Virus record (IMG/VR): IMGVR_UViG_3300027782_000036
Length of the DNA: 64,000 nt
From: a virus
Strand: one strand, 5' to 3'
Shown here: in pieces, positions 5,694-64,000 of the stretch
How positions within the stretch are numbered: position 1 is the first letter of the stretch
Layout: every line of letters begins with the position of its first letter
Program-made: the position numbers and the translations under genes
The notes under the pieces: generated by a model
What the model saw: only the letters and a program-made list of their open reading frames with translations
Databases searched by the model: none
What the model was told of the DNA's origin: nothing

Positions 5694-5884
5694 TTTTGAA
5701 TCTCTAATTTAACCTTCATTAAATGGGTATATTCCTCATTGGTCAATTCCAATGAGTCCAAATATTCCATTACACTTTGAGTTTCTAAAAATCCTCTAGT
5801 GAATTTATAGTGGTCAATATAATAGATATAGTTCCAATTGGTACATAAAACTACTTCTAATGCTTCTTCAACAATAGGACGCAT
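5684..5884 (-). CDS. Hypothetical protein
   Basis: TAATG coupling. Confidence 0.65.
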   Translation of the reverse strand: MRPIVEEALEVVLCTNWNYIYYIDHYKFTRGFLETQSVMEYLDSLELTNEEYTHLMKVKLEIQKWN

Positions 5885-6201
5885 TAATTTTTACCAAAAG
5901 AATTTATAAATGATGATAATGTTTGGTCATAACCTAAACTCGGTGCTATCGATGTGGCAGCACCAGCTACACTCAACATAGCATATGGATTATTATTTTT
6001 CATAGCATTTTGAGAACTATAAATTAAAGCACCAGTCTGTAAAATAGCGGCCAAAGGTATTTGAGCTCTCGTTTGTTGATATGATTGAATATCTCTATTC
6101 ATTGGATCACCACCGTATGGTCCTCTATAAGTTCTTAAAGGATCAGCAAGTGCTGATGTTGAGATTGCTACTAGACCTATTACTGCTAGAATCTTTTTCA
6201 T
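5884..6201 (-). CDS. Exported protein homologous to the C-terminal extension of this phage's gp54
   Basis: Sec signal MKKILAVIGLVAISTSALA-D; 33/54 identities to the segment encoded at 24110-24271. Confidence 0.85.
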   Translation of the reverse strand: MKKILAVIGLVAISTSALADPLRTYRGPYGGDPMNRDIQSYQQTRAQIPLAAILQTGALIYSSQNAMKNNNPYAMLSVAGAATSIAPSLGYDQTLSSFINSFGKN

Positions 6202-6357
6202 TCTGTTTCTTCCTTATTATTTAAAATCCTGTTGATGTCTTTTGTCATCATCCATAATTTTGCATAGACTACAATAGACATGATAAATGCTGCTAAGTCA
6301 AATCGCTGATACAAGCATGCAGCTAAAACACTAATAATACCAGCTAACTCAAACATT

Positions 6358-21048: not shown

Positions 21049-21082
21049 AAAAAGAAACCCGCTTCGGCGGGTTTTTTCTTTT
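21049..21082. terminator. Bidirectional terminator with a C(UUCG)G tetraloop
   Basis: AAACCCGC-TTCG-GCGGGTTT with A and T tracts, between convergent genes. Confidence 0.92.
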
Positions 21083-23069
21083 ATACCGGTCTTACTTTTC
21101 CGTATTGAACTCTCATCAGTATAGGTTCTTCATTTCTTATACTTGTGCCACCATTACTACCACCTCCACCGCCGCCTCCACCGCCCATAATATTAGTAGT
21201 TGATTTATTGATTGTAGGTGAACCTTGACTCATAGTAGCAGAAGGACCAACCAAACTTTGATTTTCAGAAACGGCTGCATTCACTCTTGCTGTCGATGGT
21301 GTTTGTGCACCACCAGATGGACTTGCAGAAGGTGAATTTGATGGACTAGAAGATGATGATCCTGTTGGTGAAACTCCTGGTGATCCTGTAGAACTTACTG
21401 ATGGTGTTGCTGATGGAACAGGAGAGGCTGTATCTTTTTTAACTTCTGATGCAGAACCTTTTTTATCTTCGACAAAAAAGTCATACATTTTTCCTGCTAA
21501 CCATCCACCAATTTTATCACCACCTAACAAAGCAGCGGCTGCACCACCAAGACCCCCAATAACTGTACCAACACCTGGAACTACTGAGCCGATTGCACCA
21601 CCTAATACAGGTAATAAACCTGCAGCTGCGGCCGAACCAATTGATTTTGTAATTTCTTTTTTATAATCAGCATCTGATATTTCACCTGCTTCTTTTTTTT
21701 CATTTACTTCTTTAATTCTCATTACAAGGTCAGCACCAGCAGTAATCAAACTTAATCCTGGAATTGATTTTAAAAATCCTAATAGTTTACCACCACCTTT
21801 TAATAATTTAGAAGCACCACTTGCAACTTTTGTTGCCATCTTTCCACCTTTAGCTAATGCTGATCCTGTTTTTTCAGCAGCTTCAGCTACTTTACTTGCC
21901 GTTCCGGCTTTAACTGCACCAAGTCCAGATTTAACAGCTCCACCAGCACTTGATGCTACTGAACTTATAGATTTAATTGCTTTACCACCAAAACCCATAG
22001 CAGATTTAACACCGCCTTTGATAAATGATCCTGCTTTACCTGCAAGTTTTGCGCCACCTTTTACAATACTTTTACCAGCAGAGACAACACCACCAACCAT
22101 TTTAGAACCAATATTACCAAGTGCCTTTAGTCCTAACATAGATGATAGTCCACCCATTAACATTCCAGGTAAACCTTTCATCATACTGAATAAACCACCA
22201 AGCATATCAAAAAGGCCAGATTTTTTCTCTTCTTTTTCTTTACCTTTTGGACCCTTGCCTTTTAAAATGGCATTGATAAGTTCTTTGTGTCTTCGTTCAT
22301 CTTCAGATTTTTTTTCTTCTTCAAAACTTTTATTAATTTCACGTAATTTAGTATCTTCTTCAAATTTATCAGATATTAATTTATAAATTTGTTTTAATGT
22401 ACCAGCACCGCCTTTGATTGTTTCGCCTTTACTTGAAACTTTTTTGGCTGTTTGTGTTTTCTCTGATCGATCACTTCTATTAGATACCGATTCAGTATAT
22501 GGTTTTTCCATATCCGAAGGATCAGCTGTAGGACGAACACCAGTAAAATATGATATGTCGGCATTTTTACGACCAAATTTTTTACCATAAGCAGTTGCGG
22601 CCAATGGTGAAATTTTCGATAACATATTCATAGGATCAAATTTCTTTTTGAAATTTGTAGCTTTAGCGGCTATTTTATCTTTAAAGGCTTCTTTAATAGA
22701 AGATCCTAAACCTTTACCAGACATCATTTTTTCTGATGCAAGATACCCTAAACCTTTACTCGATGTTACATCAGCAATTTCATATTTTGAAGCTTCATCA
22801 TCTCCACCACCACCATATGCAGATGTTGAAGTTCTATATCTTCTTCTTGTTGGTTTTCCAGATTTGGATGGTGTAAAATAATATTTGTTTTTAGATACAT
22901 TTGTAGGAGGTAGTTCAGTCGATTTTGGTTTACCCAATTTAGCACCAAGAGCTTTAGTAGCAGCGAGACCTAAATTGCCATCTTTACCTAGCTCAAACCA
23001 CCAGCCCTTACCATTTAAGGCATTTGGGCTCCAAGCATAGGTGATTCTACCAACGTTCTTTGTTATCAT
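21081..23069 (-). CDS. Putative tape-measure / hub protein (gp29-like position)
   Basis: 662 aa, G/K/A/S-rich, glycine zipper GGAIGSVVPGVGTVIGGLGG; downstream of gp26/gp51. Confidence 0.6.
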   Translation of the reverse strand: MITKNVGRITYAWSPNALNGKGWWFELGKDGNLGLAATKALGAKLGKPKSTELPPTNVSKNKYYFTPSKSGKPTRRRYRTSTSAYGGGGDDEASKYEIADVTSSKGLGYLASEKMMSGKGLGSSIKEAFKDKIAAKATNFKKKFDPMNMLSKISPLAATAYGKKFGRKNADISYFTGVRPTADPSDMEKPYTESVSNRSDRSEKTQTAKKVSSKGETIKGGAGTLKQIYKLISDKFEEDTKLREINKSFEEEKKSEDERRHKELINAILKGKGPKGKEKEEKKSGLFDMLGGLFSMMKGLPGMLMGGLSSMLGLKALGNIGSKMVGGVVSAGKSIVKGGAKLAGKAGSFIKGGVKSAMGFGGKAIKSISSVASSAGGAVKSGLGAVKAGTASKVAEAAEKTGSALAKGGKMATKVASGASKLLKGGGKLLGFLKSIPGLSLITAGADLVMRIKEVNEKKEAGEISDADYKKEITKSIGSAAAAGLLPVLGGAIGSVVPGVGTVIGGLGGAAAALLGGDKIGGWLAGKMYDFFVEDKKGSASEVKKDTASPVPSATPSVSSTGSPGVSPTGSSSSSPSNSPSASPSGGAQTPSTARVNAAVSENQSLVGPSATMSQGSPTINKSTTNIMGGGGGGGGGSNGGTSIRNEEPILMRVQYGKVRPV

Positions 23070-23266
23070 TACCTTTTTCTTTCAGCGTTCTGTTGTTTAA
23101 TCTTTTCATTTTCAGCTTCAATGTATTGAATTAACATTGAAACATAAATGTCTCTTTCCCACGGAATCATATTCTCAAGTTCCGCTAGGTTATACTTATG
23201 ATGTTGCATCAAAGAGAAATTAGTCCGATAATAATTTCCCAAATTATCATGACGAAAGGTTAGGAA
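23069..23266 (-). CDS. gp51: Baseplate hub assembly protein gp51-like; probably expressed by -1 frameshift from gene 26 (first ATG at 23209)
   Basis: Hand translation HDNLGNYYRTNFSLMQHHKYNLAELENMIPWERDIYV; absent from the ORF track. Confidence 0.8.
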   Translation of the reverse strand, partial: FLTFRHDNLGNYYRTNFSLMQHHKYNLAELENMIPWERDIYVSMLIQYIEAENEKIKQQNAERKR

Positions 23267-24004: not shown

Positions 24005-24835
24005 TTATAATGTAAATTTATTAGAAGTAGACGTTAATCCACCTATAGTAAATTTGTTAGCATTCACAGTAGAAGCATTTTGATCCATTTTTGAATCAAG
24101 AACACCTCTACCAGACGAATTTAATAAAGATGAAACAGTTTTTGTTCCACCAATACTTGGTATTACAGAACTAGCTGCACCAGCTACACTCAATAAAGCA
24201 TAAGGATTACCATTTGTTAATGCTTTACCTGAACTTACAGCAAGAGCTCCAATTTGTAAAGCAGCCGCCAAATTAAATGGACTATTGAGTGCTGTTGCTG
24301 AAACATGTTTAACTTCAGCTGTTGCTTGAGTTTCCCAATAAGTATATGCAAACACCACACTCAATTTGTGATATGGTGCATCACTTGACCAATCTAAATC
24401 TAATTGATTTACTGCAATTGGAAAAGCATCTATTAAATTAATTTTATGAACTTCATTATTAGAATTATCAAATTGAACAATTGTAATTGTAGAAACATAA
24501 TTTGCTTTGTATTCAAAATTCCAACTAGTTTGTGGATTTATTTTCTCCATCCATGCATCAAAAACTGCTTTTTCAATCATATTATCATCACATATAAAAG
24601 TTAATGTAATGTCTTCATATGTTGATTGATATGGATATTTTTCTGTTGGTCCATAAATTCTTAAATCAGATGTTGCTAGTGTTCTACCTGGTATTACAGC
24701 ATTTTCACATCTAAGTGCTAAGGTTCTTGTGTCGATGGTTGAACCAAGTGAAGCAGGTAAATTAATTATTACATGAAACCTTGATGGTTTAGCTAATTCA
24801 CCCGTAAAACTTGAACGAAAGTCTTGGATATTCAT
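24005..24835 (-). CDS. gp54: Baseplate tail-tube initiator (gp19/gp54 fold) with a ~100-aa C-terminal extension
   Basis: CENAVIPGR, Y.DITLTF, F.AWME.I, L.DAFP..VN...L.W, V.FAY.YW. Confidence 0.8.
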   Translation of the reverse strand: MNIQDFRSSFTGELAKPSRFHVIINLPASLGSTIDTRTLALRCENAVIPGRTLATSDLRIYGPTEKYPYQSTYEDITLTFICDDNMIEKAVFDAWMEKINPQTSWNFEYKANYVSTITIVQFDNSNNEVHKINLIDAFPIAVNQLDLDWSSDAPYHKLSVVFAYTYWETQATAEVKHVSATALNSPFNLAAALQIGALAVSSGKALTNGNPYALLSVAGAASSVIPSIGGTKTVSSLLNSSGRGVLDSKMDQNASTVNANKFTIGGLTSTSNKFTL

Positions 24836-25965: not shown

Positions 25966-27030
25966 ATGGCAGAAATTGGTGCAGATTTTCGTGGTGGTTA
26001 CTACGGTGAACAAATAGAATCTAGTGGTGGTGGATATGATCCATTGGCAGCCAATCCAAATGGACCATTAGCAAGTCTGTTTGCAAACGGTTATGATTTT
26101 TCTAGTCGTTTTTATCCTAGAAATTTAGGTTCAGAAACTAGAGGTCATTATATTAATTTTTATATAAATGTGGCAGAAAAATCACAATATCTTTCAGAAG
26201 GAAGATATACATTAGCTGGTGGTGCAGGTCGAACCGCAACGAATCAAGCAAATCAAGCTCAAGTGTTAGGTGCTGGTGTTGCTGGTACTGGTACTGCTGG
26301 TAATATTGTAAGTGAAATACAATCAGCAGTTACCACAAGAAAAACAAAACGAATTACCCAAGCTATTGCTTTATATATGCCTGATACTTTAAACGTCCAA
26401 TACAATGCTTCATGGCAAAGTGAGAGTTTAACAGATGCATTAGGTAAATATGTTGCCATGGGGCAGCAAGCTGCTTCAGCTGTAGATTCGTATCAAAAAG
26501 GCAAAGGTGCATCAGGCACAATTAAAAGTTTGGCACAAGACCCTGGTGTTGCTGAAGCTTTAGGCACAGCAACAGAAGGTAATATTTTAGGTTCAGGTGC
26601 AACAAGTTTCTTGTTATATGCGGGTGGTAATGCATTGAACCCACAATTACAAGTTTTATTTAAAGGTACTGATATGCGTCAGTTCCAATTTGATTTCTTA
26701 TTTGCACCATTTAGTCCTGATGAAGCAAAGAATGTTATGGAAATTATTAAAACATTTAAATTTCATCAGGCGCCTGAAGTTAATTCATCAGGTATGGGTA
26801 GATACTTTATTCCACCATCAGAATTTGATATCGACTTTTTACTTAATGGTCAAATCAATACTAAAGTGCATCAAATTGGTACCTGTGTATTGACAAATCT
26901 AAACGTTGATTATGCACCAAATGGTTGGTCAACATTTAGTGACGGAACACCAACACATATTAAATTAACATTACAATTTATGGAAACAGAAATCGTCACA
27001 AAAGAACGAGTTGATAAGGATAATTATTAA
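25966..27030 (+). CDS. gp48: Baseplate tail-tube cap
   Basis: IALYMP, NPQLQVLFKG..MRQFQFDF.F.P.S..EA, CVLTNL.VDY.P. Confidence 0.88.
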   Translation: MAEIGADFRGGYYGEQIESSGGGYDPLAANPNGPLASLFANGYDFSSRFYPRNLGSETRGHYINFYINVAEKSQYLSEGRYTLAGGAGRTATNQANQAQVLGAGVAGTGTAGNIVSEIQSAVTTRKTKRITQAIALYMPDTLNVQYNASWQSESLTDALGKYVAMGQQAASAVDSYQKGKGASGTIKSLAQDPGVAEALGTATEGNILGSGATSFLLYAGGNALNPQLQVLFKGTDMRQFQFDFLFAPFSPDEAKNVMEIIKTFKFHQAPEVNSSGMGRYFIPPSEFDIDFLLNGQINTKVHQIGTCVLTNLNVDYAPNGWSTFSDGTPTHIKLTLQFMETEIVTKERVDKDNY

Positions 27031-55711: not shown

Positions 55712-57970
55712 GTGGCAACAAATAATTCAAAATTCGTAGTAAAAAACGGTCTGTCCGTAGGCAATGGTGCCACCGGTCCAATAGATGTCATTGACGAAAA
55801 TGGTAATTGGATAGGAGCTCAACTTCCTTCTGGTGCAACCGGTGCTACAGGTGCTCCTGGTGCCACAGGTTCTCTAGGTAATGATGGTGCGACTGGTTAT
55901 ACCGGCGCTACAGGTATTCAAGGTGCTTCGGGTGCCACAGGTATTGATGGTGCTTCAGGTCTAACAGGCGCAACCGGCATTGATGGTGCTTCAGGTGCAA
56001 CTGGTCTTCAAGGTGCTTCAGGTTTAACTGGAGCTACGGGTATTGATGGTGCTACGGGTATTGATGGCGCAACAGGTATAGATGGTGCTTCAGGTTTAAC
56101 TGGTGCTACAGGCATTGATGGTGCCTCAGGTGCGACTGGTCTCGATGGCGCAACTGGTTACACTGGTGCTACTGGTTCTGCTGGTCTTGATGGTGACAAA
56201 TATAACACCACATCATCTACATCATTATCAATTCCAGTTCTAGGTGCAACTGGTATCACGGTCGATGCTAATTTAGATTATTCACCTGCTCAAACTATCG
56301 TAATCGCAAAAGATGCTAACAACTATCAATTAGGTACAGTCTCATCATATTCAGGAACGACATTAGCTTTTGTTCCAACAACTTATGTAGGTACTGCCTT
56401 AAATCATACTTCATGGACCGTTAATCTAGACGGTGCTCAAGGTGTTCAAGGTGCTACTGGTTACACTGGTGCTACTGGTATCCAAGGTGCTTCGGGTGCT
56501 ACAGGCGCTGATGGTGCTTCAGGTGCCACTGGTTATACTGGTGCTACAGGTATTCAAGGTGCATCTGGCGCTACAGGCGCAGATGGTGCCACTGGTTACA
56601 CAGGTGCTACAGGTATTCAAGGTGCATCAGGTGCCACTGGTGCTGATGGTGCTACAGGAGAAACAGGAGCTACAGGTTACACAGGTGCTACTGGTATTCG
56701 TGGTGCATCAGGTGCTACAGGTTTTGATGGTGCTACAGGAGAAACAGGATCTACAGGTCCAACTGGCCAAGTAGGTGCTTCAGGTGCTACAGGTTCTCAA
56801 GGTTTAGATGGTGCTACAGGTATTCAAGGTGCTTCAGGTGCTACGGGTATTGTAGGTGCTACAGGTTTACAAGGTGCTAGTGGATCAACGGGTATCGATG
56901 GTGCAACCGGTTTAACGGGTGCTACTGGTATCGATGGTGCAACTGGTATTGATGGTGCTACCGGTTATACTGGTGCAACTGGTATCGATGGTGCTTCTGG
57001 TATTGAAGGTGCTACAGGTATTGGTGGTGCTTCTGGTGCTACTGGTCTTGATGGCGCCACAGGTATTGGCGGAGCTACTGGTTATACAGGTGCTACAGGT
57101 ATTGGTGGTGCTTCAGGTGCTGATGGAGATACATATCATGCTCTATCAACTTCAGTGTTTACGATTGGTGGATCTGGTCAAATCACAATAACATTAAATG
57201 CTACAACATACGATTACACTCCAGGCCAATCAATCATAGTTGCTTATAATGCAAGTAACTATCAATTAGGTACAGTTGTAAGTTTAACTACAAATCAACT
57301 TATATTTAATAAGACTACATCAGTTGGTTCAGGTGAACACGATTCATGGACAATAAACTTAGATGGTGCTCAAGGTGTTCAAGGCGCTACTGGTTATACT
57401 GGTGCCACGGGTTCTTCAGGTAATGATGGTGCTACCGGTGTTCAAGGCGCTACTGGTTATACTGGAGCTACAGGCGTTCAAGGTGCTACCGGTGAAACAG
57501 GTGCTACAGGTATTAATGGTGCAACTGGTGAAACAGGCGCTACAGGATATACAGGTGCTACCGGCGTTCAAGGTGCTACAGGCGAAACAGGCGCTACTGG
57601 TGCCACTGGTTCTGATGGTCTTGTAGGTGCTACTGGTTATACAGGTGCTACTGGTGCTGGTTTACAAATTGGTGCATCAGGTTTAACTACAACCGTTCCA
57701 AATCAAACAATCGACACATATGATGCTACTGTATATAGAACTGCTAAGTATATCATTCAAGCTACTCATAGTTCTGACGTTCATTCAACAGAAGTTATTG
57801 TAACACATAATGGAACAGATGCTTCAGTGACAGAATATGCTACACTCTACTCAACATCTAGTTTGATGACGGTTAGTGCACTTTATAGTTCTGGTTATGT
57901 TTATGTTAAAGTCTCACCAGTAAATACAAACACAACTATTGACTTCTTACGTGAAGCAGTATTAGCTTAA
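55712..57970 (+). CDS. Collagen-like fibre protein 2
   Basis: GTG start, AAGGAG RBS; F.VKNGL N-terminus; three G-X-Y tracts; RTAKYIIQA...TEYA C-terminal domain. Confidence 0.9.
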
Positions 57971-58011
57971 TACAATAAAAATAAAACAAAAATAATCTAG
58001 GGAGATTACTT

Positions 58012-61000
58012 GTGTCACTACCAACGAATGATATAAAATTTAATGTAACGAATGGCCTGGCGGTAGGTGCTTCTGGCATACAAGTAATTAATACATCAGC
58101 TGAATGGGTTGGTAATTCAGGTCCTGGTGAAAGTCCTTATGGCGCTACAGGTCCAGACGGTGTTCAAGGTGCTGATGGTGCTTCAGGTGTTAATGGTGCT
58201 TCGGGTGTAACAGGTCAAGACGGTGCAACAGGTATTGTTGGTACTCGAGCAGAAGATGGCGCTTCAGGTGCTGATGGTCTACAAGGAGCTACAGGTCCTC
58301 TTGGTGCTATAAAACTTCAACATGGATATGAGTGGACTAATGATCAATTACAATGGAGAGGTAATGCATACGCTGGCGGTGCATCTCCAGCAGTATCAAG
58401 ACTAGAATTTCTTCAATCAGATCCTATTTACTCATATTTAAATGCAATATCTCCAGGTACTTCGTTAGTTATAGATTGGACTGGTTTAACTGTTGCTACA
58501 GTTACCACTATAGGCACTGTTCAATCTCCAACAGCATATACTAATGGAAGACATTATCTACAAATAAGTGCAAATCCTGATGGATATTCTTCTGGTGGAT
58601 ATGGATCAACCAATGCATCTGATGTATTAATGATTGGCACAGGTCCACGAAATCAAGGTATTCGTGGAATTGCGGGTGTCGATGGTTCTACAGGTTTAAC
58701 AGGCGTTATAGGTACCGATGGTGCTTCTGGTGTAACAGGCGCTTCAGGTGCTCAAGGTTTAGACGGCGCTACTGGTGCTACAGGCGTAATTGGTATAGAT
58801 GGCGCAACAGGTGTGACGGGTGACGATGGTGCAACGGGTGTTTCAGGTGCAAGATACCATACAACAAGTTCAACTAATCTAGACTTTGGTACACTGTTCA
58901 CTACTTCTATTTTAGTAGATGACGATCACTTAAACTATTCAGCTGGTCAAACTATAATTATTAATGACCTTGCACACGCAGGTCAACATTTTCATGCTAC
59001 AGTTAATTACTATGACCAAGAAACACATGATTTAAACTTCACAGTTATTGACTATGTTGGTACTATATCATCAACTTCATGGGAAATTAACCTTGATGGT
59101 GCAGTAGGTCAAGTGGGGGCTTCAGGTGTAACTGGTACTAATGGTGATCAAGGTCAAATAGGTTCAGATGGCACACAAGGTTCTAACTTTGATTCACAAG
59201 GTGAGACAGGATCAAATGGTGACCAAGGTATTGATGGTTCATTAGGCACACAAGGTTCAAGAGGATCAAATGGGGTTCAAGGTGACCAAGGTATTGCTGG
59301 TTCTGACGGCACACAAGGTTCAAATGGAACACTAGGTGTAAGAGGTGTGACCGGTGAAAATGGCGATCAAGGTGTAGATGGTGATCAAGGAACTTCAGGC
59401 AATAATGGTGCAGTAGGTCAAGATGGTGCTACTGGTGCTCAAGGTGGTGATGGTTCCACCACAACTGGTCCCGTATCATTACTTTTTGGTGTAGCTTATT
59501 CAAATGTCTCTTGGGTAGATGTATCACAAGGTGCTATAGGAATAAATCGTATTGAATATGAATCAACAGAGCCAATAGCATCAACTCTAAATTATTTAAA
59601 CGTAGGTGATACTCTTACTCTAAATTGGGGATACACAAATGGCGGTGGATGGACACAAGCCATAGTAACGGTCACTGAAACATGGACAACAAATGGTGGT
59701 GCAACTGGAACATTTAATGATTGGTATATTGGTGTAGATATTAGTCCTATCACGGAAAGTGGACTTGGATCACCTTCTGTCATATTCTCTACTGCTCCAG
59801 GTGATACAATTGTTTATGAATCATTTACAGGTCCAACAAATACAGGTTATACAGGTTCAACTGGTGCCACAGGTCCTCAAGGAGATGTGGGTAATCAAGG
59901 TTATAATGCTGATCAACTCACTACTGGTAATCCACGTGGTGCATGGGATCCTTACACATTATACTATGTAAATGATATCGTAGTTACTGCTGCTCCTGCT
60001 GATTCACACAGATGTATAGTGCAAAATACAGGCAACGATCCAGATACTACTTCAGGATATTGGGTAACTACAGCTTGGGCTGGTGCTAGTGGTGCTTCAG
60101 GCACAGATGGTGCTTCAGGTGTTACTGGTGAAATTGGTACAGATGGCGCTTCAGGTATAACAGGAGCTAGCGGTGTTACAGGCGATAATGGTCAACAAGG
60201 TATATCTGGATATGATCAATTATATGGTGGTGCAACAGGTTCATTTGGTGCAACAGGTATCGATGGCGCTACAGGCGTTGATGGTGCTTCAGGTGTAACT
60301 GGCACTACTGGTGTAGACGGTGCAACAGGTTCAAACGGATTAAGATTCCATGCACTTGCTGATGGTACATATTCAATTCAAGGTGTAGGTACTAGCACAG
60401 GAGTTACATTATTACCTGACTCACAATCAGAAGATTATTCTTATTCATTTGCAGTTGGTATGTATATTGTTGTTGCTCGTGATGTCAATAACTACATGAT
60501 TGGTATAGTTACTGCATACAATAATACAAATGGTGCATTATCCTTTGACGTAACTACTTCAGTAGGTAGCGGTTCAGGTAGTGGCTGGATAGTCAATCTT
60601 GATGGTGCAGTAGGTATCGCAGGTGCAACTGGTGTAACTGGTCAAGATGGTGCTACAGGTGCTACAGGTACTATAGGTTCTCAAGGTGACCAAGGTGATA
60701 CTGGTTTATCCGGCACTTATGGTGTTCAAGGTACTACAGGTAGAACTGGCGCTACAGGCGTTAAAGGTGACACTGGTCAAAACGGATTAGTAGGTGAAAC
60801 CGGTTCTGATGGTGTCATTGGTGTAACTGGTTTAGATGGTGAACAAGGTGAAACTGGTGCTACAGGCGCTACTGGTGTTACTGGTCTAAAAGGTTTTAGT
60901 TTAGCACAAGGTTCAACTGGTTTAACTGGCACATCACAACAAACTATTAATATATTTGCTGCTAACGAAATTGGAACGGCTAAGTATCTTGTTCAAGGTG

Positions 61001-61509
61001 TATATAGTTCTAACGTTCAAGCTACTGAAGTTATTCTAACACAAAACGGTAGTGGTGTATACATCACAGAATATGCAACACTCAAAACTGGATCTAAAGT
61101 GATGGATGTAACCGCATCTAGTGACGGTTCGGTGATATCACTCAGAGTAACTCCAACAGTTTCTCCTACAACCTACAATTGGGTTCGTGAATCAATTAAA
61201 GGAAGAATTGGTGGAACAACTATAGAAGATATAACTGGAACTAGTTTCTTCTTTTCATATTCACATACAGATAATCCAGCAATTGCAGTAGGTAAAGCTA
61301 ATCTATATTTTGGAACATATTGGACAAACTTAATTAATTTCACATCATTAATTGGTTCAAGTGTAACATTTGATGAAGCTGGTGTTGGACCACAAAGTCC
61401 GGCAGTAGGTGTTGTTGATAGTTGGGACGGCACAACATTAGTTGTAACTATCTCAAGTGGATCATTTACAAATAGAACCACATTGGATAAAATCACCTAT
61501 GGCTACTAA
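58012..61509 (+). CDS. Collagen-like fibre protein 3
   Basis: GTG start; G-X-Y tracts interrupted by globular modules. Confidence 0.9.
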   Translation: MSLPTNDIKFNVTNGLAVGASGIQVINTSAEWVGNSGPGESPYGATGPDGVQGADGASGVNGASGVTGQDGATGIVGTRAEDGASGADGLQGATGPLGAIKLQHGYEWTNDQLQWRGNAYAGGASPAVSRLEFLQSDPIYSYLNAISPGTSLVIDWTGLTVATVTTIGTVQSPTAYTNGRHYLQISANPDGYSSGGYGSTNASDVLMIGTGPRNQGIRGIAGVDGSTGLTGVIGTDGASGVTGASGAQGLDGATGATGVIGIDGATGVTGDDGATGVSGARYHTTSSTNLDFGTLFTTSILVDDDHLNYSAGQTIIINDLAHAGQHFHATVNYYDQETHDLNFTVIDYVGTISSTSWEINLDGAVGQVGASGVTGTNGDQGQIGSDGTQGSNFDSQGETGSNGDQGIDGSLGTQGSRGSNGVQGDQGIAGSDGTQGSNGTLGVRGVTGENGDQGVDGDQGTSGNNGAVGQDGATGAQGGDGSTTTGPVSLLFGVAYSNVSWVDVSQGAIGINRIEYESTEPIASTLNYLNVGDTLTLNWGYTNGGGWTQAIVTVTETWTTNGGATGTFNDWYIGVDISPITESGLGSPSVIFSTAPGDTIVYESFTGPTNTGYTGSTGATGPQGDVGNQGYNADQLTTGNPRGAWDPYTLYYVNDIVVTAAPADSHRCIVQNTGNDPDTTSGYWVTTAWAGASGASGTDGASGVTGEIGTDGASGITGASGVTGDNGQQGISGYDQLYGGATGSFGATGIDGATGVDGASGVTGTTGVDGATGSNGLRFHALADGTYSIQGVGTSTGVTLLPDSQSEDYSYSFAVGMYIVVARDVNNYMIGIVTAYNNTNGALSFDVTTSVGSGSGSGWIVNLDGAVGIAGATGVTGQDGATGATGTIGSQGDQGDTGLSGTYGVQGTTGRTGATGVKGDTGQNGLVGETGSDGVIGVTGLDGEQGETGATGATGVTGLKGFSLAQGSTGLTGTSQQTINIFAANEIGTAKYLVQGVYSSNVQATEVILTQNGSGVYITEYATLKTGSKVMDVTASSDGSVISLRVTPTVSPTTYNWVRESIKGRIGGTTIEDITGTSFFFSYSHTDNPAIAVGKANLYFGTYWTNLINFTSLIGSSVTFDEAGVGPQSPAVGVVDSWDGTTLVVTISSGSFTNRTTLDKITYGY

Positions 61510-61552
61510 TAAATAACATATAACAATCGTATAACACCGGGGAAAATGAACC

Positions 61553-64000
61553 GTGTCAACAACAAATAAATCTTTTCTAGTAAAGAACGGCCTTGCCGTT
61601 GGCGGTGCGTCTGGCATCGTTGAAGTCATTGACACTTCTGGTGCTTGGATTGGTGCAACAGGAACATTACATGGTGCTACAGGATATACTGGTGCTACAG
61701 GATTAACTGGTGCAACTGGTGTTCAAGGTGCTAGTGGTTCTACAGGATTAACTGGTGCTACAGGTGTTCAAGGTTTACAAGGTGCTTCTGGTGCCACAGG
61801 AACTCAAGGCGACCAAGGTGCTAGTGGATCAACAGGATTAACTGGCGCTACAGGTATCCAAGGTTTACAAGGTGCTTCGGGTGCTACAGGCACTGATGGT
61901 ATTCAAGGTGCTTCTGGTGCCACTGGCACACAAGGTGCTTCAGGTTCTACAGGTTTAACTGGTGCTACCGGTGTTCAAGGTAACCAAGGCGCTTCTGGTG
62001 CTACAGGTATTGGTCAACAAGGTGCTAGTGGTTCTACAGGTCTTCAAGGTCCATCCGGACAATCATCGAGTTATTATAACTATAATGCAAAAACTAATCA
62101 GCAATCAGGTGATCCAGGTAGCGGTCATGTAAACTGGAATAACGTTACTCTATTATCATCTACATACCTTCAAATCAGTCATTTAACTGGTGATTCAGTT
62201 GATGTGGATTTATTCCTAAGTATCATTAATCTAAATGATATCATCATTATCCAAGAACAAAATGATTCTTCAAGATTTCAAAAATGGCAAGTCAATGGCA
62301 CTCCAATAGCTCATACGAATTCATACTATGAATTTCCAGTAACACTACTTGATAGTGGAGGTACTGGTATTGGTAATAATAATAGTATCATCGTAGCTAT
62401 CGTATCGACACCAGTTGATGGTGCGACAGGATCTCAAGGTGCTACTGGTTTAACAGGTGCTACAGGTGTTCAAGGTATAACAGGTGCTTCAGGTGCTACA
62501 GGATCACAAGGTAACCAAGGGGCTACCGGCACTCAAGGTATACAAGGTGCTAGTGGTTCAACCGGCCTCACAGGCGCTACCGGTATTCAAGGTTTACAAG
62601 GCGCTTCAGGTGCTACCGGCACTGATGGTGTTCAAGGTGCTTCAGGTTCAACAGGACTTACCGGTGCTACCGGCGTTCAAGGTGCTTCAGGTGCCACAGG
62701 TGCTACAGGTTTCCAAGGTGCTAGTGGTTCTACAGGTCTTACTGGCGCTACTGGCGTTCAAGGAATTCAAGGTGCTTCAGGTGCTACTGGTTTAACTGGT
62801 GCTACTGGTGAAGCTCCGGCAGTTACAATTTATACAGCAAATTCTATTTCTTTAACAGATGGTGTTTATGTTTCAGGTAACGTTCAAAGCATCCAAGCAT
62901 TTAATGATGGTGATCAATACATATTAACAGACGGAAGTCATGCAGGTCCAGCGTGGATATTCAATGTAGATTACATCAATGTAGATAAATTTAATATTGT
63001 TGATCTTAATATTCAATATACTCAGGCTTCAGGCCATACGGTCTATATACAATTATATAATAATAATACATCAACATGGGATTCAATTGGTTCATATAAT
63101 GGTTTAGCTGGTTATTATATGTTTGAACTAGGCGTAATCTCATCATTACCATATGTATCAGCTGGTGTTGTATTATTAAGACTATACCACTCAAATACAG
63201 GTAACGTTTCACATCAATCAAATATAGATTATATTGCTCTTGTAGATTCTATACAAGGCGGTCAAGGTCCTACAGGTAGACCAGGCGCTACAGGTATTTC
63301 TGGTGCTACAGGCGTTCAAGGTATACAAGGCGCATCAGGTGCTACGGGAGCTGCGGGTTCAAATGGTACTAATGGCGCCACAGGTGTTCAAGGTATTCAA
63401 GGTGCTAGTGGCGCAACTGGTATTCAAGGTATTCAAGGTGCATCAGGAGCGACTGGTTCATTCAGTGCATTCACTGCACAGTTTGGTCCACAGACAGCTG
63501 CGACTGGTGCGACAGGTTATGTATTTGTATTAGGTACATTAACAGTAGGTACAGGAGCAACTGGCGCCACTGGTATCACAGGTGCAACTGGTTCTATCAA
63601 TGCTTCAGGTGATATTACAGTTAGAGCTGGTTCGACTACTGGTTCTGCAACAATTACTACACCATCTACTGAATTAGTATTAACACAAACTGGTGATCAA
63701 TATGGTCCTTCAACTTTAAGGCTACAAAGTCGTACTGGCTTAAATGGCGCTTTATTTGATTGTTCCGCTAATCCTTATGCTTTAGTTGATTTTGGATTTA
63801 AAACATCTGCCGCACAAAGAGTTTTAAGATTTGAAACAAGACCTGTTTTTGGTATTATTACTCAAGTTACACCTCGTGAATTCCAAATTGGCGATGCAGG
63901 TACTCCAACTTTAGTTACTGACGATACTGTAGTATTAGTAAACAAAACTACAGCATCAACCTCTACCACCTCTGGTGCTTTACAGGTCAAGGGTGGAGCA
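61553..64000 (+). CDS. Collagen-like fibre protein 4, truncated by the window end (at least 816 codons)
   Basis: GTG start MSTTNKSFLVKNGLAVGG, paralogous to the previous two N-termini; missing from the ORF track, consistent with no stop before the window end. Confidence 0.88.
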   Translation, partial: MSTTNKSFLVKNGLAVGGASGIVEVIDTSGAWIGATGTLHGATGYTGATGLTGATGVQGASGSTGLTGATGVQGLQGASGATGTQGDQGASGSTGLTGATGIQGLQGASGATGTDGIQGASGATGTQGASGSTGLTGATGVQGNQGASGATGIGQQGASGSTGLQGPSGQSSSYYNYNAKTNQQSGDPGSGHVNWNNVTLLSSTYLQISHLTGDSVDVDLFLSIINLNDIIIIQEQNDSSRFQKWQVNGTPIAHTNSYYEFPVTLLDSGGTGIGNNNSIIVAIVSTPVDGATGSQGATGLTGATGVQGITGASGATGSQGNQGATGTQGIQGASGSTGLTGATGIQGLQGASGATGTDGVQGASGSTGLTGATGVQGASGATGATGFQGASGSTGLTGATGVQGIQGASGATGLTGATGEAPAVTIYTANSISLTDGVYVSGNVQSIQAFNDGDQYILTDGSHAGPAWIFNVDYINVDKFNIVDLNIQYTQASGHTVYIQLYNNNTSTWDSIGSYNGLAGYYMFELGVISSLPYVSAGVVLLRLYHSNTGNVSHQSNIDYIALVDSIQGGQGPTGRPGATGISGATGVQGIQGASGATGAAGSNGTNGATGVQGIQGASGATGIQGIQGASGATGSFSAFTAQFGPQTAATGATGYVFVLGTLTVGTGATGATGITGATGSINASGDITVRAGSTTGSATITTPSTELVLTQTGDQYGPSTLRLQSRTGLNGALFDCSANPYALVDFGFKTSAAQRVLRFETRPVFGIITQVTPREFQIGDAGTPTLVTDDTVVLVNKTTASTSTTSGALQVKGGA

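Follow-up and report, generated by a model that had tools for sequence, protein, structure and literature searches.

A predicted secreted phage protein shares a module with the C-terminal arm of a gp54-like tail-tube protein

Why should a phage encode, in a small protein with a predicted export signal, a segment that it also carries in a structural protein of its tail? The question is raised by a viral DNA of 64,000 nucleotides (hereafter, the window), in which a preliminary description had paired two ORFs through such a segment. Both are present on the minus strand in the ORF list: a small ORF at 5884–6201 encoding 105 amino acids, and a gp54-like ORF at 24005–24835 encoding 276 amino acids.

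Residues 50–104 of the small protein align without gaps with residues 189–243 of the gp54-like protein (33 of 55 identical, 42 of 55 positive; BLASTP, composition-adjusted E 1e-17), in agreement with the ungapped alignment described earlier. In a shuffle control for this A/S/G-rich segment, the observed local score was 159, as compared with a mean of 26 and a maximum of 61 over 5000 shuffles (z = 25.9). The DNA of the two module copies is 67% identical over 165 nt and 55% identical at third codon positions; the 17-bp identical run that had been reported was found at 5960 and 24177. A six-frame scan with a profile of the segment detected exactly two copies in the 64-kb window, one in each of these ORFs, and ruled out a third copy, including in the tape measure. 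The shared segment is a true and specific homology that had not been annotated.

The small gene and its immediate surroundings have the following features.

5884..6201, minus strand: small gene, encoding a 105-aa pre-protein composed of signal peptide, linker, and 55-aa module (stop codon included)
6145..6201, minus strand: predicted Sec signal peptide, codons 1–19, with a small-x-small cleavage motif before Asp20 (read from the sequence)
6055..6144, minus strand: Pro/Gly/Tyr-rich linker, codons 20–49, apparently dispensable, as it is mostly absent from short forms
5890..6054, minus strand: shared module, codons 50–104, predicted helix-turn-helix plus a short third helix
6209..6215, minus strand: ribosome-binding site AAGGAAG, 7 nt before the ATG (from sequence)
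6198..6356, minus strand: upstream 52-aa hydrophobic ORF, translationally coupled (from sequence, and from synteny in L001, L005, and L008)

The small ORF had no Pfam or PHROG match; the tube fold is absent from it, and its alignment to the gp54-like protein is limited to residues 50–104, after which only the last one or two residues of the small protein remain. It is not a tube protein, its homology being confined to the arm outside the tube fold. Searches for relatives of known function likewise returned nothing: there was no Pfam match at E up to 5 and no PADLOC match at E up to 1 to T4 Imm, Sp, or defence families, and the Pfam glycine-zipper models had no match at E up to 5 in the small protein or four of its relatives. 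Foldseek of the low-confidence model against the PDB gave generic helical hairpins only (E above 1), and ESM Atlas features gave no usable match.

Export of the small protein is predicted from its N-terminus, which has a Lys-Lys start, a hydrophobic core, a small-x-small motif, and no lipobox Cys. Taking a hydrophobic h-region of about 10–12 residues and small residues at −3 and −1 as the marks of a Sec/signal peptidase I substrate, we found these features along with a positive n-region; the call was made by eye, on the sequence itself and on an alignment of 15 homologues. The Kyte-Doolittle peak at residues 1–25 is 1.9. The n/h/c layout and the small residues at −3/−1 are kept in 15 of 15 aligned family members, even as the signal peptide evolves fastest, and the layout is retained in members down to 30% identity. 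The Sec signal peptide of the preliminary description is thus recognizable by eye and persists across divergent homologues.

The mature small protein has no hydrophobic stretch of transmembrane grade. Its module is rich in Gly/Ala/Ser with small-xxx-small spacing and is moderately hydrophobic (19-residue Kyte-Doolittle maximum of 1.0, and of 1.3 for the module in gp54). AF2 placed helices at residues 50–68, 72–85, and 95–102 at low confidence (pLDDT 50–66), which with the same low confidence would give a helix-turn-helix followed by a short third helix, matching the prediction for the gp54 arm. The models suggest that folding of the module depends on a partner.

The upstream 52-aa ORF and the small gene overlap by stop and start codon (ATGA), and the stop of the small gene in turn overlaps the next start. 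Together with other small ORFs, closely packed and reading leftward, the gene lies downstream of several sigma-70-like promoter matches. The 52-aa ORF is predicted to form one or two hydrophobic helices, and it accompanies this slot in several relatives, whichever cassette comes next.

If the N-terminus were instead an uncleaved anchor, or were unused, the small protein could take part in tail morphogenesis from the cytoplasmic side, chaperoning the partner of the gp54 arm or serving as an assembly factor for it. As a paralogue of a virion module it could compete for or hold a binding site, and the AF2 models, in which the module seems to require a partner, would suit such a role. However, the −3/−1 small-x-small residues are kept in every homologue while the hydrophobic core drifts, as is the case for a cleaved signal peptide; the gene lies among small accessory ORFs, 18 kb from the tail genes; and one phage has the protein together with a gp54 devoid of the module. 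We regard a role in assembly as very unlikely.

The second copy of the module lies among tail genes, of which the relevant ones are as follows.

24005..24835, minus strand: gp54-like tail-tube junction protein, 276 aa, with the tube fold at about residues 20–170 followed by a C-terminal arm (Pfam/PHROG, PDB profile, AF2 and Foldseek)
24107..24271, minus strand: paralogous module in the gp54-like arm, codons 189–243 (BLASTP; conservation among homologues)
25966..27030, plus strand: gp48-type baseplate tail-tube cap, 354 aa (phrog_230, E 1e-55; weak match to Pfam T4_tail_cap)
21081..23069, minus strand: 662-aa tape-measure-like protein, candidate partner; a hydrophobic stretch rich in Gly/Ala is conserved at about residues 472–520

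The tube beta-sandwich of the gp54-like protein is recognized by family profiles, which places the protein among gp19/gp54-type tail-tube proteins: it scored 31.7 and 27.1 bits against PF06841 and PF23849 (Phage_T4_gp19 and Phage_TTP_2), both above cut-off, and E 3e-45 against phrog_45. The AF2 model has a confident beta core, with a Foldseek probability of 1.00 to the T4 and KP1 tube chains and matches to further tube chains. A profile built from the protein and 19 relatives matched T4 gp19 and, at E 0.004, T4 gp54 in the PDB; of the solved T4 baseplate proteins, gp48 was not matched. Because of this PDB match and the presence of a separate gp48-type cap gene, we named the ORF gp54-like, and this assignment to the T4 gp54 type rather than to gp48 is justified; the preliminary description had likewise called it gene 54. 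Its neighbors encode gp2 (DNA end protector), gp26, and the tape-measure-like protein.

The module comes just after the last strand of the tube fold. Helices were predicted by AF2 in the C-terminal arm at residues 190–207, 213–221, 234–240, and 243–260, at low confidence. A profile scan of the gp48-type cap (25966–27030) gave no module match. The tape-measure-like protein has an invariant hydrophobic Gly/Ala-rich core at about residues 420–535, a Ser/Pro-rich low-complexity stretch at about 545–600, and a run of nine Gly near its C-terminus. Next to its gene, relatives carry a separate 46–47-aa gene between gp26 and the tape measure (L013 4522–4665, L014 4602–4745, and L099 11686–11826; window 23069–23260), with a weak match to Pfam Gp51_C.

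In a collection of 5.8 billion proteins, the small protein has ten real homologues: 105-aa forms of 86–92% identity, a 107-aa form of 65% identity, and short forms of 81–83 aa (P0007–P0010). The short forms are without most of the linker (about residues 20–41) and consist of little beyond signal peptide and module. Four divergent small proteins of 30–37% identity have the same architecture. A profile of the module, searched against 1.84 billion protein representatives, gave 14 matches at E up to 1e-3. Twelve of these are credible and fall into two architectures only, namely gp54-like tubes and small signal-peptide proteins, the latter of about 80–110 aa, beginning with the signal peptide and ending in the module; the other two are repetitive proteins with marginal scores. 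Generic repetition and compositional bias are thereby excluded as explanations of the module, which disposes of the concern, raised in the preliminary description, that a widespread repeat had been picked up. Polar positions are kept in both architectures, in the form of an Asn-Pro turn and a Thr-x-Ser-Ser-x-x-Asn stretch.

Among the 120 gp54-like homologues listed, 62 carry the module (phmmer, E up to 1e-3), the most distant of them at an overall identity of about 45%, and a few more divergent carriers were picked up with the profile; the remaining listed homologues have other or shorter arms. The module in gp54 is thus an exchangeable insert, flanked on one side by the tube fold and on the other by an acidic tail that is conserved more widely. 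Two further metagenome contigs, L098 (401–1255) and L097 (416–1264), carry module-bearing gp54-like genes, and L098 belongs to the P0069-71-type lineage, the arms of which group with small-protein modules.

The small gene had no match by blastn or tblastn among 50,697 cultured-phage records, and a scan of IMG/VR with the small-protein alignment yielded no confirmed hit. The module profile found nothing in five large IMG/VR contigs from more distant T4-like phages, in a scan that had no positive control; a scan of metagenome contigs with the module found two gp54-type loci only and is unsuited to a census. The module is restricted to a clade of T4-like phages, all uncultured. The phage itself is known only from metagenomes, has a GC content of about 33–36%, and had no cultured relative that we could find. 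In the window, GC rises to 0.43 at 56001–64000, as compared with about 0.33 in the preceding 30 kb, with a strongly positive GC skew; this region coincides with very long ORFs (55712–57970, 58012–61509, and 61550 onward).

Selection on the two genes was assessed with Nei-Gojobori estimates of dN/dS by gene and region. Values for the whole small gene were 0.18–0.34; by region, at dS of 0.1–0.5 or saturated, the module (0.06–0.20) was more constrained than the signal peptide (0.34–0.79). In gp54 genes, the module (about 0.09–0.35) and the tube core (0.16–0.33) evolve similarly. The small gene is conserved and under purifying selection. Neutral decay, which would have told against the preliminary proposal, is contradicted by the constraint on the module and by the conservation of homologues. 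The related idea of a non-functional remnant of a partial gene 54 duplication draws on the fact that only part of gp54 was copied, and it is effectively excluded by the selection data, with module dN/dS this low at dS up to 0.5 and beyond. It is also at odds with intact ORFs in at least ten protein clusters from many samples, with a ribosome-binding site and operon coupling that have been preserved, and with distant members that keep the same architecture.

One gp54 arm departs from this pattern. In P0039 (L014 3001–3813), from a close relative and set against window 24107–24271, the arm has a dN/dS of 0.71, as compared with 0.20 in the core, and has lost six residues; its dN is 0.60 against 0.12 in the core, and the rest of the protein is conserved. 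This divergence could reflect relaxed or diversifying selection.

The preliminary description took the small protein to be a copy of the C-terminal extension of the phage's own gp54. The near-family small-protein modules are on average 82% identical to each other, but only 54% identical on average, and 71% at most, to gp54 arms, with 60% identity to the resident arm. A tree of 81 modules places the near family with gp54 arms of the P0069-71 lineage (SH-like local support 0.96) and gives the four divergent small proteins a clade of their own (support 0.90) beside divergent gp54 arms; the tree rests on 55 columns and is indicative only. The nesting of near-family modules with P0069-71 fits capture from a tube gene rather than recent copying of the resident gene. 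What stands from the preliminary description is a homology that is real, specific, and maintained; what falls is its derivation from the resident gp54.

Co-variation between the small protein and the gp54 of its own phage, which had also been anticipated, is argued against by two contigs. On a 64,285-bp contig, the module of the small protein P0006 is consensus-like and the arm of the resident gp54, P0039, is degenerate. On a 156,638-bp contig, the divergent small protein P0143 occurs alongside P0103, a gp54 whose arm is of another kind and lacks the module. A 166-kb contig encoding gp54 P0059 had no small copy in the 31 kb around gp54, the syntenic slot lying outside the stretch examined. The small-gene family is an old, selectively maintained, and independently evolving paralogue with predicted export. 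Its most likely origin is the capture, behind a signal-peptide module, of a 3' segment of gp54 that came from a related lineage.

The position of the gene in relatives is consistent with a mobile accessory cassette. The small gene is found in the same slot as in the window in L003, L005–L009, and the contigs of P0007. In L001 and L002, the slot holds P0133 instead, and the module-bearing gene is 7.4 kb away. P0133 is a secreted-type protein whose signal peptide is almost that of the small protein and whose C-terminus is unrelated; P0011 and P0012, two additional hits of the small protein in the collection of 5.8 billion proteins, share only the signal peptide and the first linker residues, after which their C-terminus is also unrelated. 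Members of this second family (P0133, P0011, and P0012; L001 758–1078 and L002 2738–3058) end in a Gly/His/Tyr-rich stretch, a glycine-zipper-like hydrophobic patch, and a two-Cys tail. The sister cassette had no match to virion proteins and was rejected as a virion mimic for this reason.

As to what an exported copy of the module might do, we put at roughly 40% the probability that the small protein interferes with genome delivery of related phages by mimicry of the gp54 arm. Sec export would place a free module in the periplasm, the compartment that is entered by the tip of the contracted tube. There, the module would bind the usual partner of the gp54 arm, for which the candidates are the hydrophobic helix of the ejected tape measure, the distal tube rings, or a membrane surface. 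Such binding could disturb channel formation and genome delivery by related phages arriving later, and the small protein would then be a superinfection-exclusion factor that arose by exaptation of a virion module. The proposal of the preliminary description, of a decoy serving in superinfection exclusion, is in this form plausible.

The mechanistic idea is a reasonable fit to current work on T4. In a 2026 preprint on T4, a helix-turn-helix that comes after the tube fold of the distal tube protein gp48 (residues 241–282) is reported to close, once the tail has contracted, on a tape-measure helix assigned to its transmembrane segment and to flare outward on membrane contact; T4 Imm is reported to exclude by binding the helical bundle of the tape measure (doi 10.64898/2026.03.06.709160). 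In the ring next to gp48, the module described here provides the first helix to follow the tube fold, so a free periplasmic copy could compete for the partner of the arm. It resides in gp54, however, whereas the ring reported to clamp the tape measure in T4 is gp48. Because a profile of the module had no detectable similarity to the arms of T4 gp54 and gp48 (hhalign probability below 1%), the analogy to T4 is one of position only. An HMMER alignment running through the C-terminus of T4 gp54 was discarded as independent support, as it is carried by the tube fold. Complex prediction with tape measure residues 270–545 and the mature small protein, both supplied as alignments, returned a score of 0.00, which weighs neither way.

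Further observations count against a decoy. The small protein does not track the gp54 of its own phage and is present also where gp54 is without the module, which makes a role unconnected to gp54 possible; and the slot can hold a sister cassette that is no copy of a virion protein. Both would be expected of a periplasmic or membrane-peripheral accessory protein that has no link to incoming tails and serves instead in envelope remodelling, receptor masking, or lysis timing, with the module being a small-residue helical hairpin reused for packing or membrane association. The small-xxx-small Gly/Ala/Ser composition and moderate hydrophobicity of the module (1.0 and 1.3) would suit this role, as would the persistence of the small family where the gp54 module is absent or degraded. 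Arguing against a general-purpose element are the restriction of the module to two architectures among 1.84e9 representatives and the lack of a match to Pfam glycine-zipper or other families, and the conserved Asn-Pro turn and Thr-x-Ser-Ser-x-x-Asn stretch point to a specific shared contact. An envelope role of this kind is less probable than interference with genome delivery, though not by far.

Lysis control offers another route by which a periplasmic module could matter. The T4 protein RI is a small exported antiholin that acts in lysis inhibition, and the small protein resembles it in size class and compartment. A periplasmic sensor of superinfection would recognize the tube tip or the ejected tape measure of a second phage, a tail-derived logic that it shares with the decoy, and would signal to the lysis machinery; the coupled 52-aa hydrophobic ORF directly upstream might belong to such a pathway. 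In sequence, the small protein nevertheless proved similar neither to RI nor to any known family of holins or antiholins, its signal is of the cleavable type rather than a signal-anchor-release domain, and no lysis genes were identified nearby. We think a sensor very improbable.

Interference with genome delivery by mimicry of the gp54 arm is the reading that we favor. A bolder version of it, which we consider unlikely, holds that a lytic T4-like phage converted part of its tail-tube junction protein into a decoy secreted to the periplasm, where it would keep out later phages by occupying the partner of the arm, be this the tape-measure helix, the tube tip, or a membrane site, and that the degenerate or replaced gp54 arms of some lineages represent escape from such decoys.

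The steps by which the tip of a contractile tail engages the inner membrane and forms a channel for DNA are just beginning to be understood, and in T4 alone. That a free copy of the arm module occurs, with predicted export, marks the gp54 arm as functionally important, and a peptide of about 60 residues offers a reagent for finding the partner of the arm. Should the small protein exclude superinfecting phages, mimicry of a virion module would be a new design principle among the few injection-blocking mechanisms that are understood, and an arms race would be expected that could be read in the gp54 arm diversity of natural phage populations. If it does so as a decoy, it would be the first exclusion factor to have arisen by exaptation of a virion module and would reveal the role of the gp54 arm in genome delivery. 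With some other function, it would still represent an uncharacterised family of secreted proteins with an unusually clear evolutionary origin.

Comparison with known systems begins with T4 gp54 and gp48. What the 276-aa ORF has in common with them is the gp19-type tube fold followed by a C-terminal arm, an alignment with T4 gp54 in the PDB, and its gene neighbors (gp2, gp26, gp51, and tape measure). They differ in that the module has no detectable similarity to the T4 arms and the small protein has no tube fold. T4 Imm, like the small protein, is a small phage protein of the envelope that acts on incoming genome delivery, although for the small protein this action is a prediction. Imm is a polytopic inner-membrane protein unrelated to virion proteins, whereas the small protein has a predicted cleavable-type signal, no mature helix of transmembrane grade, and an origin in a virion module; the two have no sequence similarity. 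Other exclusion factors that act on tape-measure-dependent DNA entry are Ltp of Streptococcus phage TP-J34 and gp15 of HK97, small helical proteins, exported or located in the membrane, through which DNA injection is blocked at the step that involves the tape measure. Ltp contains helix-turn-helix repeats and is a lipoprotein, in contrast to the small protein, which has no lipobox Cys; to our knowledge, neither Ltp nor HK97 gp15 is a paralogue of a tail protein. The closest comparison by location is the P0133/P0011/P0012 cassette. Its C-terminus is unrelated, being Gly/His/Tyr-rich with a two-Cys tail and no virion match, whereas its signal peptide is nearly the same as that of the small protein, the first linker residues are shared in P0011 and P0012, and P0133 occupies the same slot in L001.
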